From NCBI GenBank assembly GCA_964408775.1, contig CAYPAP010000001.1:289839-353838 (forward strand): 64,000 nt of DNA, read 5' to 3'. Below the pieces are notes generated by a model. The model saw only the letters and a list, made by a program, of their open reading frames with translations. It was not told where the DNA came from and did no database searches. Position numbers and translations under genes: made by a program. Below are positions 39,491-48,125 of the stretch, one piece after another. Each line of letters begins with the position of its first letter. The first letter of the stretch is position 1. The DNA is from an uncultured Gammaproteobacteria bacterium (GTDB lineage Bacteria > Patescibacteriota > Patescibacteriia > Patescibacteriales > UBA12465).

Positions 39491-39588
39491 AGCTTTCAAT
39501 AAAAAACTATAAAAAGCGGGCAATGTTGCTCGCTTTTTTTGGTAATAAAATAAAAAATCCCGCTTCTTTTTTGATGCGGGATTCATTT

Positions 39589-39978
39589 TTATACTACAAT
39601 AGATGAGATAATTATTATCAATAATAAAAAATAATATATTATTGAGAGTTTTTTGTAGTTCTTTTTGTTCCAGGTAAAACCCGAAACCATTATAAGCACT
39701 GAAACAATCAGGGCTATAAGTGTGAGCAGGCTGTAAAACAGACTTAACAGAATAAACTGAGAAGCCATAATAGCAGTTGCAAAAACCAAGACAACTGCCA
39801 TAAAGAAGGAAATATTTTTTGTTTTTTTCTTGAGCGTCAAATTTGACGCCATGAGCAGAGCGGCCAAAATGAAGGAGCTCAACACTGGGTTGAGTGGGGC
39901 ACCCTGGCCGCCCATAAGAGGATGGGCACTACAAATCGTGGCCCAAAAAATAAACAAGAAAAACATCAGTTTTTTCAT
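39589..39978 (-). CDS. hypothetical membrane protein (cassette 5), GC-enriched 5' half
   Basis: 129 aa. Signal-like N-terminus MKKLMFFLFIFWATICSA plus TM helices. Terminator AATCCCGC/GCGGGATT at 39556-39583. Confidence 0.5.
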   Translation of the reverse strand: MKKLMFFLFIFWATICSAHPLMGGQGAPLNPVLSSFILAALLMASNLTLKKKTKNISFFMAVVLVFATAIMASQFILLSLFYSLLTLIALIVSVLIMVSGFTWNKKNYKKLSIIYYFLLLIIIISSIVV

Positions 39979-40140
39979 TTTTTTGGTTTTTGGTTAGACA
40001 ATGGGGTTAACTATACTTGTTTTTTGTTAAAGGCCTCTTGATAATAAAACATCGTATCATATAAAATATTGCTTGTAAAGAGTATTGAATAAAAAATCCC
40101 GCTACATTTGTAGAGCGGGATTGTAGACTTTTTATTATTA

Positions 40141-40683
40141 TTATTTACGTACAGCGAGGAAGTAAGAATCAGGGGCTCGAATAGCATCGAACCACTGAAA
40201 ATAAAGTTGACGCTCCTCACAATTAATAGAGAGAACTGGGCAATACGCCTCAGCATATCCTTCTTCATTATGGGACCACCAACACCACATGGAGCCCAGC
40301 GCAATAATAAAAGAAGGTTTTTGTAGCTCCGGATAGTTGTTTCCCAAGGCCAGAAGCTCTGACACAAGAGCAGGGCGATAACCGGCACTATCCAATTCAT
40401 CTAAAACAACTTCACTGCTGACCTCTCGGTTAAAGTGAAACAACCTGGCCGATACAGTCACTTGCTTGCCTAAGAGCTCAGCGGGAAAAGGAAACTTTTC
40501 TTCTGTGATATCAAAACTGATCCACTCGTAATTACTAGTTTTAATCATTTCTTCCAGGTTTTGGCTGTAGTCCACTGTCAAAATGATTTCCCTGCTTAGG
40601 CTGATGACTCGTTCTTGAGCCATAATTTGATTTAAGGGGTTGCATAAAACAAATAAAATCAAAGTGAATACCAATTTTTTCAT
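40141..40683 (-). CDS. hypothetical secreted protein (cassette 4), GC-enriched
   Basis: 180 aa. Signal peptide MKKLVFTLILFVLCNPLNQIMAQ. Terminator ATCCCGCT/AGCGGGAT at 40096-40121. No family recognised. Confidence 0.55.
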   Translation of the reverse strand: MKKLVFTLILFVLCNPLNQIMAQERVISLSREIILTVDYSQNLEEMIKTSNYEWISFDITEEKFPFPAELLGKQVTVSARLFHFNREVSSEVVLDELDSAGYRPALVSELLALGNNYPELQKPSFIIALGSMWCWWSHNEEGYAEAYCPVLSINCEERQLYFQWFDAIRAPDSYFLAVRK

Positions 40684-40798
40684 TTTACCTTGGTTTTTGG
40701 TTAAGTAATTGGGTTAATTATCAAGCCTACTAATTATAATAGAATTAATAATTAACCTAATTTTAACCTTCTTGTGAAAGTGCTATCTGTAACAAAAA

Positions 40799-40827
40799 AG
40801 AATATCACATAGATATATTTTTGTCAA
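40799..40827 (-). promoter_or_regulatory. promoter of cassette 4
   Basis: Minus-strand TTGACA (40827-40822), 17-nt spacer, TATTCT. Homologous to the promoter at 42490-42518. Confidence 0.5.
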
Positions 40828-40831
40828 GCTA

Positions 40832-40840
40832 GGTGGCTAG
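40832..40840. repeat. tRNA-His 3'-end core copy (GGTGGCTAG)
   Basis: Identical to 42522-42530 of the tRNA-His gene. Followed on the plus strand by TGTGGAAAGTTGGAAAACTTTTCTGA. Confidence 0.6.
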
Positions 40841-40940
40841 TGTGGAAAGTTGGAAAACTTTTCTGATGGAATATTTGGTAAATTGATATAAAAAAGACCC
40901 GCGATGTTATTGCGGGTCTAAACGTTTGAATTATTGCCTC

Positions 40941-41264
40941 TCATTCTTCCAGATACACAAATCTAGGATCAAGCACTTTTTTATCATGCTTTTTCGTTTC
41001 TACATAACTAATACGAATACTATTCTCTGGATAAGCTAATCTCAAATAAGAAATTCGTAAAACGAGGTTTCTATTTTGAACAAACAGAGTATCGCGCTCA
41101 TTAGTAATAACAACAATTGATTTCATGTGAGCGGCTCCACTAGGTCCCAGAAATACTAATTCTTGATCAGCAGGGATTATAATATCCCTCCAATTAGAAT
41201 CATTACCGCAAGAGTTAAACAATACAAACAAAAATGATAGCAAAATAACTGAAAATGTTTTCAT
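40941..41264 (-). CDS. hypothetical lipoprotein-like protein (cassette 3)
   Basis: 107 aa. Signal peptide with Cys (LFVLFNSCGN). Promoter TTGACA-17-TATACT at 41340-41312. Terminator at 40895-40919. Confidence 0.5.
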   Translation of the reverse strand: MKTFSVILLSFLFVLFNSCGNDSNWRDIIIPADQELVFLGPSGAAHMKSIVVITNERDTLFVQNRNLVLRISYLRLAYPENSIRISYVETKKHDKKVLDPRFVYLEE

Positions 41265-41423
41265 GATATTTATTTTTTTGGTGAATATCTTAATGAACTA
41301 TATAACACGATAGTATATAATATTTAAATAATTTTGTCAAGCAGTTTGTCTTCCCGCTAGGGGTAACCGATTTTTAACAAAAAAATACCCCATTTTATTG
41401 GGATATTTTTAATTTGCTTCTAG

Positions 41424-41433
41424 GGGTGGCTAG
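41424..41433. repeat. tRNA-His 3'-end core copy (GGGTGGCTAG, 10/10)
   Basis: Identical to 42521-42530. Confidence 0.6.
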
Positions 41434-41434
41434 C

Positions 41435-41482
41435 AGGGAGGCTTGGAAAACTTTTCTGAGGGAGGCTTGGAAAACTTTTCTG
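41435..41482. repeat. 24-bp perfect tandem duplication AGGGAGGCTTGGAAAACTTTTCTG x2
   Basis: Read directly from the sequence. The same GGAAAACTTTTCTGA motif sits next to the core at 40832. Confidence 0.85.
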
Positions 41483-41552
41483 GTTGATTATTGGGTGAAA
41501 TAAAAAACCGCACTTGTTCAAGCGCGGTATTAAATGTTAAAATAGAAGATTT

Positions 41553-41780
41553 TCAATATAAACCTCTTACTAAATATCTTCTGAAATAAAAAGGCCATAA
41601 AATAACGCCTTTAAGCCTTTTTTTTAAGCTCCGTAGAGGATACTTGTCATATAGCTTATTTTTAGCCTTTACCTCTTCAACTCTTGCCATAAAATACATA
41701 ATTTCAACCGCAAGAGAGGAAAGAAATCCAACTCCCAAATAAATAATTGTGAACGTTAAAATAATTAAAGTTTCCATCAT
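41553..41780 (-). CDS. hypothetical small membrane protein (cassette 2)
   Basis: Start moved to ATGATG at 41780, directly after a strong SD (AAGGAGGAGGTGA). 75 aa with one TM helix. Terminator at 41507-41528. Confidence 0.5.
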   Translation of the reverse strand: MMETLIILTFTIIYLGVGFLSSLAVEIMYFMARVEEVKAKNKLYDKYPLRSLKKRLKGVILWPFYFRRYLVRGLY

Positions 41781-42082
41781 TTCACCTCCTCCTTTTTTAA
41801 TTATTAAATTGTTAATGTGATTTAATAAATTAACATAGATTATTTTAAAAATCAATAGCTTCTAAGTCAGCGCTTTTGTTTGTTAGTTTTAGGTATACAA
41901 AAAGACCTATTATATTAGTTTTAAATAGGTCTCCCCAGCAGGGTGGCTTATGTGAGGTATTTAGAACTTTTGATTGGTCGGAGATGATGATTGGTTTAAA
42001 TAAATTAAAGAAAGAGTCTAATATATTGAGTTTAGTGAAATAAAAAAACCGCACCTATTTGAGATACGGGGTTATTTTTTTC

Positions 42083-42370
42083 TTAATATTTTTGCCAAAG
42101 CGCTTCAATAAGAGATTTTTTAATTGTTTCGTAATCTCTTTCATCGTAACAATCTTTGTTGATAACTGCCCGGACAGATTCGCAAGAAGAGCCAGCCTCA
42201 TAGTCTCTTTCTGTGTAAGCGTCTATATCTTGTTCCACCTCTACAACAACGAAGTTAATATTTTTAACCTTTAGGTATTCGCCTTTTAAAGGTACGCGTT
42301 GAACATAAATTTGTTTTAAAAATCTTACATTATTAACCTCAAGACTGTACATTGCTGCAATTAAGTTCAT
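42083..42370 (-). CDS. hypothetical small cytoplasmic protein (cassette 1)
   Basis: 95 aa with a strong SD (AAAGGAGGAAT). Terminator with T-run at about 42049-42069. Confidence 0.5.
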   Translation of the reverse strand: MNLIAAMYSLEVNNVRFLKQIYVQRVPLKGEYLKVKNINFVVVEVEQDIDAYTERDYEAGSSCESVRAVINKDCYDERDYETIKKSLIEALWQKY

Positions 42371-42489
42371 TTTTATTCCTCCTTTTTTAAAATTAAAAAA
42401 TTAGATTAATTATTAAACCTACTAATATAATAAACTTAATAATTAACCCAATCTTAACCTATTTGTAAAAGGGCTACTTGTAACAAAAA

Positions 42490-42518
42490 ATCATATCACA
42501 TAGATATACTTTTGTCAA
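42490..42518 (-). promoter_or_regulatory. promoter starting 2 nt after the tRNA-His 3' end
   Basis: Minus-strand TTGACA (42518-42513), 17-nt spacer, TATGAT (42495-42490). Confidence 0.6.
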
Positions 42519-42519
42519 G

Positions 42520-42594
42520 TGGGTGGCTAGAGGGAATCGAACCCTCACTTCCGGGACCACAACCCGGTGTTCTAGCCGCTAAACTATAGCCACC
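42520..42594 (-). tRNA. tRNA-His (anticodon GTG) with encoded G-1
   Basis: Manual fold: G-1 + GTGGCTA/TAGCCAC acceptor, anticodon stem CCGGG/CCCGG with loop TTGTGGT, T-arm GAGGG-TTCGATT-CCCTC, discriminator C. Confidence 0.85.
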
Positions 42595-42609: not shown

Positions 42610-43143
42610 TTAAATTCGGTAAAAATATATATTATCTCGCCCCTCCTTAATAACCCTTTCCGGGTCAAGCCCCGCGATACTAAATCTATAACTAACAACC
42701 AATGTTCCTGGGCGACACTCTTTTTTAAACTTTTCTTTTAACCTTTTCATGGTCTCTGGGATTAAGAAACAATAAATAACGTCCGCCTCCTTTAAACTAA
42801 TCTTAAAAATATTTTTTCTAATCATTTGAATCTTACTACCCGTTATTACAATTTGCATTTTAGCCAAAACATAGGGCCACCAAGAATATTCCACTCCAAC
42901 CAATTTTTCATTTTTAAATTTTTGTTCTACTGCCCTTAAAAAACCGGCCTTACCCGCCCCTAATTCATAAACAGTCTCTTTTCCACTTAAATTTAATTCT
43001 TTTAAAATCGCCAAAATAGCGCTAAATTTAGTAGAAATAAAAGGAGCAAATCCTCTAAAAACAACATTATACATTTGAGTGGTAACGAATATTAGTGCCA
43101 AAGACAAAACCACTAAAATAACTATTAATAAAAAGGCCTCCAT
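42610..43143 (-). CDS. membrane-anchored putative SAM-dependent methyltransferase
   Basis: N-terminal TM helix and a glycine-rich loop (VYELGAGKAGFL). Confidence 0.5.
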   Translation of the reverse strand: MEAFLLIVILVVLSLALIFVTTQMYNVVFRGFAPFISTKFSAILAILKELNLSGKETVYELGAGKAGFLRAVEQKFKNEKLVGVEYSWWPYVLAKMQIVITGSKIQMIRKNIFKISLKEADVIYCFLIPETMKRLKEKFKKECRPGTLVVSYRFSIAGLDPERVIKEGRDNIYFYRI

Positions 43144-44683: not shown

Positions 44684-44814
44684 ATCTTTAATATAAATAA
44701 TTAAAAAACAATTGATTGTCTATAGAATCAATTTATTGTACTATATTATATAACATCTTTTGACTTTTGACAATACTAAAAATATTTGTTATTATTTCCT
44801 TGTTTTTAAGTTTT

Positions 44815-44888
44815 GGAGCGGTAGTTCAGTTGGTTAGAACGCCTGCCTGTCACGCAGGAGGTCGCGGGTTCGAGTCCCGTCCGTTCCG
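44815..44888 (+). tRNA. tRNA-Asp (anticodon GTC)
   Basis: GGAGCGG acceptor, anticodon stem CCTGC/GCAGG with loop CTGTCAC, T-arm GCGGG-TTCGAGT-CCCGT. Confidence 0.85.
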
Positions 44889-44894
44889 CAAATT

Positions 44895-44967
44895 GCGGGT
44901 ATCGTATAATGGTTTATTATATCAGCCTTCCAAGCTGAGGATACGGGTTCGATTCCCGTTACCCGCT
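44895..44967 (+). tRNA. tRNA-Gly (anticodon TCC)
   Basis: GCGGGTA/TACCCGC acceptor, anticodon stem TCAGC/GCTGA with loop CTTCCAA, T-arm ACGGG-TTCGATT-CCCGT. Confidence 0.8.
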
Positions 44968-45034
44968 CCGACAAAAAAAGAGAAAGGTTGTGCCTTTTTC
45001 TTTTTTTATTATTTTAAAATAGTTTTTATAATAA

Positions 45035-46156
45035 TTATTGTTTTATTGGCATAACTAAATACAAAAAGTCATCTCCTTTTTCAGGTCTGATAACACATGG
45101 TGTATTATTATCAACAACTCCCAATACAATATTTTCTGAATTAATATTATTTAACCCCTCTAATAAATATTTATAATTAACAAACACCTCATTGTCCCCC
45201 CCCTTAATATTCGCATCTAGTTCAATAAAATTTTCTCCCGCCTGACTAGAGCTAGATGAAATAATTATTTTATTTTTTATAAAATTCAAATTAACATCAT
45301 TTATTCCTGTTTTAGAAAAAAGACCAGCCGCTTTAATGGCTCGCGAAAAAATATTTTTATTAATAATGATTTTTGTTTTTTCCTCTTTCGGTATTATCTG
45401 TTTATAGTCCGGATAGTTTCCAACTATTATTCTAGACCCAATTTTAGTTGATCCAATTGAAAAAAATATTTGGTTATTATTTAAATATAAATTAACCTCC
45501 CCCTCTCCCTCAATCTGTTCTTCGGTCTTAAAGTTATTCAAAATTCTAACCAACTCCTGAATTGTTCTAGCAGGGACAATAATAGTAAACTCTTCTTCAT
45601 TTTTATTTTTAATTTTTATTTTTTTCTCAGCCAAGCGATAACTATCTGTTCCAACCAGGGTTAACTCTCCTGACAAAAAAGAGAAATAAACCCCAGACAA
45701 CTCAACCCTACCATCATTACTAGAAACAGAAAAAACAGTACTAGACAAGGCCTCCCTAAAATCCTCAACTGCAAAAGAATAAAAACTTTTTTGATCAATT
45801 TTTGGAAGAACCGGAAAGTCTTCGGCTGATTGTCCCTTTATTCTTGTTTTATGATTTTTAGAATCAACCTTTAAATCATCTTCAACCCTTTCTATTTCAA
45901 CCTTGTCCTCAGATAAAAGATTTATATAATCACTCATAATTCTGGCATCAACCGTAAACTCTCCCTCTTTTTCAACCTTTCCCCTTAAAGAGCTTTCTAT
46001 GCTTATTTCTAGATTAGTAGAAATTAGTTCTATCCCTTCTTTTTTTGCTTTTATTAAAATATTATTTAGTATCGGTAAATTTATATTTTTAGTTGTTAAA
46101 TGTGAAACTATGGCTAGGCCCTGTTTTAAGTTTTCTTTCAAAATTATAAATTTCAT
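45035..46156 (-). CDS. dnaN: DNA polymerase III beta sliding clamp
   Basis: 373 aa. N-terminus MKFIILKENLKQGL....H....K..LPIL.NILI. Located directly downstream of dnaA. Confidence 0.9.
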   Translation of the reverse strand: MKFIILKENLKQGLAIVSHLTTKNINLPILNNILIKAKKEGIELISTNLEISIESSLRGKVEKEGEFTVDARIMSDYINLLSEDKVEIERVEDDLKVDSKNHKTRIKGQSAEDFPVLPKIDQKSFYSFAVEDFREALSSTVFSVSSNDGRVELSGVYFSFLSGELTLVGTDSYRLAEKKIKIKNKNEEEFTIIVPARTIQELVRILNNFKTEEQIEGEGEVNLYLNNNQIFFSIGSTKIGSRIIVGNYPDYKQIIPKEEKTKIIINKNIFSRAIKAAGLFSKTGINDVNLNFIKNKIIISSSSSQAGENFIELDANIKGGDNEVFVNYKYLLEGLNNINSENIVLGVVDNNTPCVIRPEKGDDFLYLVMPIKQ

Positions 46157-46450
46157 ATTTTTCTTTTATATTTATTTTATATTATATTAAATAATAATAG
46201 TAATAAGGGGTGGGGATATGTTTGTTATTTTTTACTTCGGCTTTTGTTTTATTGTATTAAGTCGACCTTTTGACTGTTTATAACTATGTTTAAATTTTCG
46301 GTAAAAACTTTTTGATTTGTTAATAACTTTTTGTTTTTAAAACTTATACACATTTTATAAAAAACGATTAATAGTTTTTGCACAGATTTTAAATTTTTTA
46401 TTAACTTAATATCAACCGTTTATTAACAACTATTTTTTCTTTTTTTATAA
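46157..46450. other. dnaA-dnaN intergenic region, candidate oriC part
   Basis: Very AT-rich 294-bp spacer with a one-mismatch DnaA box TTATACACA near 46344. Confidence 0.35.
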
Positions 46451-47818
46451 CTATAAAGAGCCATATAACAGCTGTTTTATAGACTGAATGTCTTGAACAA
46501 GTTTTTCGTTTTCGTCTTTTTCTTTGTTTATTTTATTAAAGGCGTGGATGGCGGTTGTATGGTCTCTTCCCCCTAGGGCTTCTCCTATTGTGGGATAAGA
46601 CGTTTTTAATTCTTCTCTCATTAAAAATATAGATATTTGTCTGGGAAATACTAACTCTTTTTTTCTTTTTTCTCCCATTAGGTCTTTTACACTTATATTA
46701 TAAAACTGGGCAACGCTCTCTATTATGTCTTTGGGGCTCATCGGTTTTATTTGATTGTTGTTTGTTAAATCATTTAAAATGGTTTTTACCATTTTTAATG
46801 TTGGTTTTAGATTATGAAATTCGTGATAGGCAATAATTTTATTCAAAGCCCCCTCTAATTCTCTAATATTATTTTGGATACTTTCAGCAATATATTTTAA
46901 AACTTCATCTTCTATTATGTAATTCTTTTCTTTAGCCTTCTTTTCTAATATAGCAATTTTTGTTTCAATATCTGGTCTTCCAACGTCTGCCACCATGCCA
47001 GACTCAAATCGAGAAATTAGCCTTTTTTCAATCGCTGGGATGGCCTTTGGTGGCCTGTCAGAAGATAATACTATTTGTTTATCTCCCTGCTGTAATTCAT
47101 TGAAGGTGTGAAAAAACTCTTCTTGAGTTCCGTCTTTTCCCCCCATAAACTGAACATCATCTACTAATAGTAGATCAACGTTTCGATATAGATTTTTAAA
47201 TTCTTTTGCTCGCCCTCCTCTTATAGAGTCTATATAATTATTTGTGAATTGTTCACTGGTTGTGTATAAAACTTTTTTGTTGTTTTTTACTAGCTCGTTT
47301 CCCATAGCTTGAAGCAAATGAGTTTTTCCTAGTCCTACACCCCCGTAAATAAATAAAGGGTTGTAAGCCTTGCCCGGGTTGCTAACAATTGCCTGACAAG
47401 CTGCGTAGGCTAGCTCGGTTGCCTTGCCCACCACAAAAGTAGAAAAGGAATATTTTGGGTTCAGACCAAATCGGCTAACGTTTATTTTATTTTCTTGTGA
47501 GCAGGCTTTTATTGGTTCTTCTTTTTTTTCATTTTTTTTACTTATATCCTTCTCGCTGCTTTCTTCTTTTTTTAGATTTACACTGAATTCTATTTCAGTA
47601 ATTTTTTTTTCAACAATTTTTTCTATAGAAGATTTAATGGCCTTGTAATATTTTTGCTCTAACCATCTTTTAGTGAATTCATTTGGCACCGATATAATAA
47701 CCTTATTATCCTCTAGGCAATAAATAAAAGTGTTTTTAAACCAAGTAATAAAGTTTACCCTGGAAATTCCAATTTCTAGTTCGCCTAATACGGCTTGCCA
47801 AATTTGATCATTGGTCAT
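46451..47818 (-). CDS. dnaA: chromosomal replication initiator DnaA
   Basis: Walker A GGVGLGKTHL, box VII, and a C-terminal DNA-binding domain (GGRDHTTAIHA). Confidence 0.95.
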   Translation of the reverse strand: MTNDQIWQAVLGELEIGISRVNFITWFKNTFIYCLEDNKVIISVPNEFTKRWLEQKYYKAIKSSIEKIVEKKITEIEFSVNLKKEESSEKDISKKNEKKEEPIKACSQENKINVSRFGLNPKYSFSTFVVGKATELAYAACQAIVSNPGKAYNPLFIYGGVGLGKTHLLQAMGNELVKNNKKVLYTTSEQFTNNYIDSIRGGRAKEFKNLYRNVDLLLVDDVQFMGGKDGTQEEFFHTFNELQQGDKQIVLSSDRPPKAIPAIEKRLISRFESGMVADVGRPDIETKIAILEKKAKEKNYIIEDEVLKYIAESIQNNIRELEGALNKIIAYHEFHNLKPTLKMVKTILNDLTNNNQIKPMSPKDIIESVAQFYNISVKDLMGEKRKKELVFPRQISIFLMREELKTSYPTIGEALGGRDHTTAIHAFNKINKEKDENEKLVQDIQSIKQLLYGSL

Positions 47819-48125
47819 ATGTTTTTTAAAATAATTATTTTAGAGAATTAACTTGTTTAGTTTATTATAGTCGAAAAATAGGAATAAAACAATTTAAGGT
47901 TTGTTCAAATACTGTTTATAAGGTGTGGATAACATAATTATAGAAAAGTGCTCAAATGGTCGCGCCCCCTTGATGGAAAATAAGTGGTTGTTACTGGGTG
48001 GTTGTACATTAAACCAGTAATAAAAAAAAACAACTTCGTATAATTGAAATTGTTTTTTATCCGCTTTCATCCACGCATGGTTGTATGATCTTTGGTAAGC
48101 GACCCGTGGCTGTGGCGGGATGCAG
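47819..48125. other. region upstream of dnaA with DnaA boxes, candidate oriC part
   Basis: Perfect DnaA box TGTGGATAA at 47924-47932. Degenerate boxes TTATCCGCT (48057-48065) and TCATCCACG (48067-48075). Confidence 0.5.

Follow-up and report, generated by a model that had tools for sequence, protein, structure and literature searches.

Staphylococcal cassette chromosome (SCC) elements are integrated by Ccr recombinases at the 3' end of rlmH, where composite arrays and recombinase-less derivatives are found, and tandem accretion with integrase-less derivatives is also known for elements of the CIME (cis-mobilizable element) type. As for tRNA genes, serine integrases were "not known" to use them in the literature of 2014, and the TIGER study of 2020 counted 14/297 predicted serine-integrase tRNA cases, which need experimental proof (PMC7192596). 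In the tycheposon islands of Prochlorococcus, degenerate remnants and partial tRNAs are scattered throughout, and 910 of 937 tycheposons carry a tyrosine recombinase, the remainder being equipped with a large serine recombinase (LSR) (bioRxiv 10.1101/2020.12.28.424599). In this study, we examined 64,000 nucleotides from an uncultured bacterium of the GTDB lineage Patescibacteriota (GenBank assembly GCA_964408775.1, contig CAYPAP010000001.1, positions 289,839 to 353,838; this whole stretch is hereafter called the window), in which five short genes, namely cassettes 1 to 5 counted from the tRNA, follow the 3' end of tRNA-His(gtg). This array is probably what remains, after decay, of an accretion island at the site where 7-10 kb LSR integrative elements of Patescibacteria attach.

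By its mode of action, SCC/SCCmec (CcrAB/CcrC) appears to be the closest described system, the likeness meant here being one of mechanism. Like SCC, the elements described below would be integrated by an LSR and have two adjacent serine recombinase genes; a conserved gene near the origin receives them at its 3' end, with dnaA and dnaN within ~5 kb here; and serial insertions, composite arrays with short direct repeats and recombinase-less pseudo-elements are common to both. Unlike in SCC, however, the target is tRNA-His but not rlmH, the hosts are Patescibacteria, the putative attP is inside the recombinase open reading frame (ORF), and the second recombinase is short. Tycheposons also share the integration at tRNA genes, the combination of an integrase with replication-type genes and distal cargo, and the pushing of older elements into an island with remnants, whereas the system here is LSR-based and tRNA-His-specific, its remnants are mostly of a single gene, and its scar is a recombinase-coding tail instead of a long tRNA fragment; the tycheposon hallmark, a tyrosine recombinase clade together with a replication module, is absent here. 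Islands of the Islander/TIGER class resemble the present one in the regenerated tRNA 3' end, the displaced far-end copy, the tandem arrays and the integrase-less derivatives but differ in the recombinase family; here, the core is only 6-11 nt long, and no tyrosine integrase was found. In terms of kind, the system is known, namely site-specific elements at the 3' end of a conserved gene that give accreting islands, and the window island itself is ordinary; what is unusual is the pairing of an LSR with tRNA-His. No description of these Patescibacteria elements was found in our literature searches, the coverage of which was incomplete and the outcome of which is absence of evidence only.

The array is bound to its relatives by a conserved block. 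Metagenome contigs and GTDB genomes were scanned with the pattern AAAAGTTTTCCAA-N8-12-AGCCACC; 67 loci were hit in the metagenome contigs, ~40 of which had the exact 11-nt spacing and a common context, and 19 of the 20 matches in the GTDB genomes, mostly titled Patescibacteria or Parcubacteria, were true (related loci are designated below by L and a number). The block is ~55 nt in length (AATTTACCAAATATTCCATCAAAAAAGTTTTCCAAGTTTTGCGMTTAGCCACCCC), encloses the motif GGAAAACTTTTCTGA and is present in ~60 related loci. When a profile of the block was used, 1-7 copies were found per locus, all of them co-oriented and spaced by 0.4-1.6 kb (6.5 kb in L042). Wherever the upstream DNA is present (at least 25 loci), the arrays begin at tRNA-His(gtg), usually with tRNA-Arg(tct) before it, and almost all of the array ORFs are on the strand of the tRNA. 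The block ends in TTAGCCACCCC even where the tRNA-His of the same locus ends in TAGGCACCCCA or TGGGCACCCCA, so it does not represent a copy of the tRNA beside it. Indeed, the identity between the scar, as we call a block together with the core in which it ends, and the tRNA is confined to the last 6-11 nt, and scars have TTAGCC even beside a tRNA with TAGGC. We also considered the scar as a longer tRNA fragment that covaries with the local T-arm; this was rejected because TTAGCC and GTTTTGCG are kept whatever the local tRNA is. Neither the scar nor the LSR had a real match in scans of viral contigs.

The cargo between the blocks is diverse: 62 of 159 array ORFs are singletons, and recurrent families occupy differing slots; the 107-aa family of cassette 3, for instance, stands third in the window, first in L015 and fourth in L097. 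Methyltransferases, an Fe-S protein, a helix-turn-helix-phosphoribosyltransferase (HTH-PRTase) protein and defence genes are included. In L042, the 6.5-kb unit from tRNA-His to the scar has a defence cluster (EcoRI-like methyltransferase, GmrSD+HNH, DUF4268 and HEPN-like) behind a 99-aa LSR remnant. In L020 (369-1979, oriented), furthermore, a cassette encodes a 536-aa protein with a C-terminal sorting domain of type IX secretion (Por_Secre_tail), which is unexpected in an array of the Patescibacteria type and may be a cross-phylum acquisition. Several GTDB records (L087, L088, L091, L095-L097, L099, L101 and L103) are titled "uncultured Gammaproteobacteria" despite their Patescibacteria-type locus; the pipeline used for submission has probably mislabelled them.

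The identity of the block became evident from intact elements. A crude motif screen flagged L029, a contig of 11.9 kb that starts inside tRNA-His. Directly after the core, an LSR with Resolvase, Recombinase and Zn_ribbon_recom domains is encoded on the opposite strand. Behind it are the genes for another serine recombinase (247 aa) and for an AAA_25 helicase-like protein, and small ORFs; then come DUF4236 and DUF5677 proteins on the strand of the tRNA, the conserved block and two more units of cassette plus block. The arrangement in L105 is the same. Intact elements of 7-10 kb adjoin tRNA-His in L029, L105, L106-108 and L109, and each of them contains an LSR, a second serine recombinase, an AAA_25 helicase-like gene and cargo and ends in the block; in L106, for example, the tRNA and the first block are separated by an element of 7.4 kb. 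The second serine recombinase is short (247-266 aa) and without a zinc ribbon, and the AAA_25 helicase-like gene is the only one found with a possible replication function. No core-like site was seen before the right-end cargo of the intact elements. L106-108 and the window belong to one ENA project and agree in gene order (DksA-zf / LspA / methyltransferase / tRNA-His); L106 and L109 share the methyltransferase-tRNA-His order of the window, and their methyltransferase is 65-68% identical to that of the window at the protein level (66% in L109).

By database search, 56 homologues of the LSR were obtained, and at least 14 distinct ones (47-90% identity) end in antisense tRNA-His, i.e., ...GV[AP]xGNRT...GTTT..., where GNRT corresponds to the T-loop and TTT to the anticodon region. 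The read-through tail of the LSR in L109 (P0149) is the antisense translation of the window's own tRNA. The closest solved relatives of the LSR cover catalytic domains only (TP901-1 integrase, E 7e-7). When the LSR ORF was joined across the core to the reverse complement of the block, a protein of ~500 aa was obtained that ends in ...GVA[KN]RK[TS]WKTFLMEYLVN* (asterisks denote stop codons). The stop at codon 17/18 is kept in 45 of the 54 distinct blocks, the variation is greatest at third codon positions (0.51 vs 0.30 and 0.35 bits), and the conservation of the block begins at the LSR stop codon; the motif GGAAAACTTTTCTGA, on the plus strand of the window, falls within W-K-T-F-L-M. Judged from this reading frame, the block is the last 17 LSR codons in their excised (attP) form, that is, the putative P arm left behind as an attR scar. 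Because the LSR ORF is continuous across the core into the block, attP would lie within the 3' end of the LSR gene. In L014, moreover, an LSR 3' remnant stands behind a type-B scar (VAYVRYLELLIGRR*), and the two form a junction resembling attP; in many arrays, LSR 3' ends truncated to 24-100 aa are found behind tRNA-His or behind scars. Such remnants show decay by internal deletion, and with them some mini-units keep both putative att arms. A crossover within CACCC(C/A) is probable, as GCC is retained in scars beside tRNAs with GGC in the acceptor stem.

More distant homologues of the LSR (P0176-P0184, 28-35% identity) end in GLEPTT and GRDSNP, which are typical of antisense T-arms of other tRNAs; these ends hint at a broader clade of serine integrases with read-through into tRNA genes.

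We propose that the very last nucleotides of tRNA-His are the target of the LSR elements. The LSR gene of an intact element directly adjoins the tRNA on the opposite strand, and the second serine recombinase, the AAA_25 gene, the small ORFs and the tRNA-strand cargo follow. With attP inside the last ~20 LSR codons, integration would regenerate the tRNA 3' end, swap the recombinase tail for a read-through into the antisense strand of the tRNA and leave at the far end a scar composed of the last 17 LSR codons and a tRNA-like core (...TAGCCACCC). Elements would then be stacked by further insertions or by recombination with resident copies, and deletions would remove the recombinase and replication genes, with single accessory genes, equipped with their own promoters and terminators, surviving between the scars. 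That the LSR catalyses the insertion, and in which order the events occurred, is what we infer from the arrangements described above.

In the window, tRNA-His is intact (ARAGORN; Rfam tRNA, 67.5 bits), and one type-B and two type-A scars, one of the latter internally duplicated, are retained behind it (Table 1). Most of what the initial annotation, made from the sequence alone, had described in this region stands. The five minus-strand ORFs of 95, 75 (with the ATG at 41780), 107, 180 and 129 aa have the sizes and positions given there. The core (CTAGCCACCC on the minus strand), which forms the last 10 nt of tRNA-His, is repeated exactly at 41424-41433 in addition to 42521-42530 and with one mismatch at 40831-40840; with up to one mismatch, it has 6 matches in the 64 kb against 1.10 expected, a number reached in 0 of 100 shuffles. 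The degenerate copy at 41941-41948 is also real, given that it terminates a second, related scar type that is found in a relative too. The motif CAGAAAAGTTTTCCA has three exact copies in the window, only within the array, and the tandem duplication of 24 bp (41435-41482, minus strand) is in frame on the recombinase-sense strand, doubling 8 codons (REAWKTFL). The promoter/leader homology between the DNA after the tRNA and that after the 40832 core, which had been put at ~128 bp and ~80% by eye, now covers 138/140 aligned nt with 84% identity. The GC content is raised in cassette 4 as described, being 0.42-0.46 over 40200-40650 vs roughly 0.27-0.35 nearby. The statement that the 64 kb has no integrase or recombinase ORF agrees with domain and motif tests: no recombinase domain was found in the 20 window ORFs of at least 200 aa or in the annotated central 20 kb, and the window ORFs tested gave no Phage_integrase match.

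Other claims needed to be amended. The motif reported to replace the T-arm beyond the non-tRNA cores is present, but it now reads as the LSR 3' coding end, i.e., the P arm of the candidate attP. Each cassette had been assigned its own terminator; the terminator stems are indeed related between cassettes (repeat families D3 and D5), but only two terminators were obtained from a strict scan, and several others were recognised by eye or by repeat search. Near-consensus TTGACA-17-TAxxxT promoters are found before cassettes 1, 3 and 4 (at 42518, 41340 and 40827), but the total count of promoter-like sites is not above that in shuffles. The leaders of cassettes 4 and 5 are homologous as well (39983-40014 vs 40690-40721; repeat families D9 and D10). 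For the five cargo proteins, Pfam, PADLOC and PHROGs gave no usable family; the 180-aa protein was modelled with AlphaFold2 (AF2) at a pLDDT (predicted local distance difference test) of 87.7, and a fold search returned only weak C-type-lectin-like matches.

Table 1. Features of the window array, listed from the tRNA outward
Feature	Coordinates	Strand	Remarks
tRNA-His(gtg)	42521..42593	-	last 10 nt (42521-42530) are the core common to the scars, attB side
TTGACA leader, copy 1	42393..42520	-	hairpin and T-run directly after the tRNA; promoter TTGACA 42518 ... TATGAT 42490 (11/12); leader of cassette 1; 84% identity to 40701-40829; homologues after tRNA-His in L091 and after a scar in L014
Cassette 1 ORF, 95 aa	42083..42370	-	without known family
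Cassette 1 terminator	42049..42069	-	
Type-B scar, ...CCAATCAAAAGTTCTAAATACCTCACATAAGCCACCC	41941..41990	-	plus strand encodes VAYVRYLELLIGRR*, tail of a second LSR subtype
Delta-type left end	41895..41940	-	terminator-like hairpin AGACCTAT...ATAGGTCTTTTT directly after the core; same type in L045, L036 and L014
Cassette 2 ORF, 75 aa	41553..41780	-	predicted membrane protein, without known family
Cassette 2 terminator	41507..41528	-	
Type-A scar with in-frame 24-bp tandem duplication	41424..41509	-	ends in the exact core CTAGCCACCC (41424-41433); plus strand encodes VASREAWKTFLREAWKTFLVDY...; profile support, nhmmer E 6e-8 and 7e-7
Gamma-type left end	41312..41423	-	hairpin ATATCCC...GGGGTATTTTTTT, promoter module CCCCTAGCGGGAAGACAAACT, TTGACA-17-TATACT promoter; module directly after tRNA-His in L015, L052 and L071 and after scars in L025 and L030
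Cassette 3 ORF, 107 aa	40941..41264	-	lipoprotein-like; 92% nt identity to L015
Type-A scar with intact 17-codon LSR tail	40832..40900	-	plus strand encodes VASVESWKTFLMEYLVN*; ends in core CTAGCCACCT; nhmmer E 2e-15
TTGACA leader, copy 2	40701..40829	-	promoter and leader of cassette 4
Cassette 4 ORF, 180 aa	40141..40683	-	signal peptide, raised GC; family widespread in CPR (candidate phyla radiation) bacteria
Cassette 4 terminator, AATCCCGC...GCGGGATT	40088..40122	-	homologous terminator beside the closest homologue, L007
Cassette 5 ORF, 129 aa	39589..39978	-	multi-pass membrane protein; leader homologous to that of cassette 4
Cassette 5 terminator	39549..39583	-	repeat families D3 and I5; no scar beyond

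The comparison with related genomes, which had been suggested as a check, revealed the presence and absence of cassettes with breakpoints at the cores. L015 and L014 are overlapping contigs of a related organism and were reached through a 122-aa variant call of the cassette-3 protein. In them, identity to the window is 78% over the methyltransferase 3' end and tRNA-His, and cassette 3 (92% identical) is directly behind tRNA-His; cassettes 1 and 2 are missing, and CTAGCCACCCC marks the precise junction. Beyond cassette 3 are the same motif, the core and the TTGACA leader (89% identical), behind which a different ORF for a 145-aa membrane protein is found. The cassette-1 terminator of the window and its degenerate core at 41941 both have a match in the 3' region of this ORF, and a cassette for a UbiE-type methyltransferase, ending in motif and core, and then another ORF come next. 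The content thus differs between relatives with breakpoints at the cores. Cassette 3 is also closer between the two genomes (92%) than its flanks (78%). A fully empty tRNA-His site was not seen in the relatives.

Searches with the methyltransferase-like protein and the 180-aa protein as leads retrieved contigs of the same strain from five samples, which are 100% identical to the window across the region. Short contigs of this strain end at 42479-42491, 42026, 41945, 39763, 39705 and 39509, including just past the tRNA junction and the type-B scar; the ends at att junctions may be due to strain heterogeneity or low coverage. Breaks at 42479-42491 and 41945 are seen in contigs from the samples ERZ27252295, ERZ27252304, SRR10872584, SRR10872647 and JGI 3300033178.

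The sequences that follow the cores were compared in the same manner, and 87 distinct ones clustered into a few left-end types. The alpha type, which is the LSR 3' end, follows tRNA-His in 6 cases and a scar in 20; the corresponding numbers are 4 and 11 for beta, 5 and 5 for gamma, and 2 and 2 for the TTGACA leader, and the other left ends form smaller clusters and singletons that were left untallied. Alpha, beta, gamma and the TTGACA leader each occur both after the tRNA and after scars, which is the mark left by exchange at the core. A terminator hairpin and a promoter module (CCCCTAnnGGGAAGACAAACT..TTGACA) are common to beta and gamma, neither of which is LSR-coding. When the TTGACA leader was considered as a diverged LSR 3' remnant, the frame closed ~13 codons before the core, and the similarity was weak (4/15 residues). 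In all left-end types, the first ~10 nt after the core are purine-rich. The module CCCCTAnnGGGAAGACAAACT is placed in the window at 41335-41375 (minus strand), a few bases upstream of TTGACA, and recurs in the beta/gamma left ends of many genomes; it could be an operator or an UP-like element.

As the first of two alternatives, the initial annotation had explained the array by serial insertion at the tRNA-His 3' end, and this part holds: att remnants are pushed outward, the breakpoints are at cores, and a recombinase family is tied to the site. A short core (CTAGCCACCC(C)) is indeed present at the end of the tRNA and of every scar, and content polymorphism breaks at this core. The inserted units, in contrast, were most likely elements of 7-10 kb but not single genes, and cassettes 4 and 5 bear no scar. 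Several observations also weigh against a decayed LSR island. An element-borne LSR with Resolvase, Recombinase and zinc-ribbon domains is found in relatives (L029, L105, L106-108 and L109) but not in the window, the 64 kb of which contain neither an LSR nor an LSR remnant, and the link to the LSR rests on relatives. No LSR in the excised (attP) form and no circular contig were found. Canonical LSRs recombine attP with attB only, and repeated insertion at an occupied site, together with the stacked ends of the beta, gamma, delta and TTGACA-leader types, is unexplained by simple decay; for the stacking of left ends that are not LSR-coding, should these be native tRNA flanks, homologous recombination with resident copies, integration of multimers or trans-mobilised mini-units are possible. 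The virtual attP has its dyad centred on the TA of TTAGCC, which conflicts with the crossover deduced from GCC/GGC. Furthermore, the last scar precedes cassettes 4 and 5, and no core or scar was detected between them or beyond cassette 5. A homologue of the window's 269-aa flank gene is found within ~100 bp of the last scar in relatives with synteny (L091, L093 and L106/L036), and cassettes 4 and 5 with DUF378 are thus extra DNA beyond the oldest scar.

It is conceivable, although we consider it unlikely, that an LSR-driven cassette system operates on tRNA-His, in which the scar and the first bases of any left end would suffice for excision, capture and reshuffling in trans by a co-resident LSR, and in which the swap of the LSR tail (the last ~17-20 residues, WKTFLMEYLVN* vs the tRNA-antisense read-through) would act as a switch of the integration state. 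If true, such cassettes would be an integron-like store of accessory genes beside the replication origin of genome-reduced Patescibacteria. The second alternative of the initial annotation was an integron-like cassette platform; if active, it would have single-gene units of core and scar moved in trans by a co-resident LSR or an unlinked recombinase, and the cassettes would still be mobile but not fossils. This is quite improbable. Cassette-sized units certainly recur in different slots and genomes with breakpoints at cores, many mini-units keep an LSR-tail scar and a short LSR 3' remnant and hence both putative att arms without a recombinase, and the purine-rich start of every left-end type would suit such a platform. 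The array also resembles an integron in being ordered and co-oriented, with mostly single-gene units, a recurring site-like sequence and a content variable between relatives. No IntI is found beside the array, however, and no recombinase adjoins the arrays in their cargo or conserved flanks (SpoU, PBP, PlsC-like and DnaN); the cassettes have their own promoters and terminators, and the recurring sequence is the tail of a recombinase gene. The boundaries do not fold like attC (z about -1.4): as single-stranded DNA, scars fold weakly (z of -1.5, -1.4 and +0.3), and only the internally duplicated copy reaches -2.8. The window cassettes also lack an alpha (P') arm, and no circular junctions were seen.

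There is very little to recommend a classical tRNA-gene island made by a tyrosine integrase encoded elsewhere in the genome; while tRNA genes are usually occupied by integrases of this type, and islands in tandem that contain tRNA fragments are familiar (PMC4383910), neither the window ORFs tested nor the arrays and elements examined gave a Phage_integrase match, no more than 6-11 nt of identity derive from the tRNA, and the scar consists of the coding end of a gene for a serine recombinase. Equally hard to believe is that the block is a functional RNA or regulatory element (a 3' untranslated region or a processing signal) in an array grown by local duplication and divergence without mobile elements, as its position between a terminator and another hairpin, its co-orientation with the tRNA and the related noncoding modules of different cassettes might suggest, given that no Rfam family matches it, its folding is weak, it varies in a codon pattern on the opposite strand in a frame continuous with LSR ORFs, the cargo is unrelated between cassettes and differs between relatives, and cassette 3 is more alike between genomes than its flanks.

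As scarred remains of LSR elements, the odd-looking array of the window is given an explanation, and the significance of these elements extends beyond it. Serine integrases are prized tools in genome engineering, and here an LSR clade, with the putative attP in its own coding end, is tied to the tRNA-His 3' end across dozens of Patescibacteria genomes; candidates for attB and attP are supplied that are defined and directly testable. Mobile elements and routes of gene gain are also poorly described in ultra-small bacteria, and the elements would provide them with an origin-proximal hot spot for accessory and defence genes.

The surroundings of the array offer some further observations. Its outermost part is cassette 5, followed by DUF378 and the conserved flank, and the neighbours of tRNA-His in the window are tRNA-Arg, a methyltransferase-like gene, TsaE, SpoU, PBP and similar. 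The island is proximal to the origin, being ~2.5-5 kb from dnaN and dnaA (window 44800-47900, L001) with rnpA, yidC and rpmH nearby, and is placed likewise in L035, L105 and L106. The family of the 180-aa protein of cassette 4 has at least 120 members in various lineages of the CPR, the closest of which has 68% aa identity. The idea that this cargo is intrinsically linked to tRNA was rejected, as the genes of the family elsewhere (L007, L008, L010 and others) each stand alone in an unrelated setting without a neighbouring tRNA. Between tRNA-Arg(tct) and tRNA-His, which are 12-30 bp apart in most relatives, the window has the methyltransferase-like ORF of 177 aa (42610-43143, minus strand); this is found only in its sub-lineage (also L091, L093, L103, L106 and L109), and the gene may itself be an insertion between the two tRNAs.

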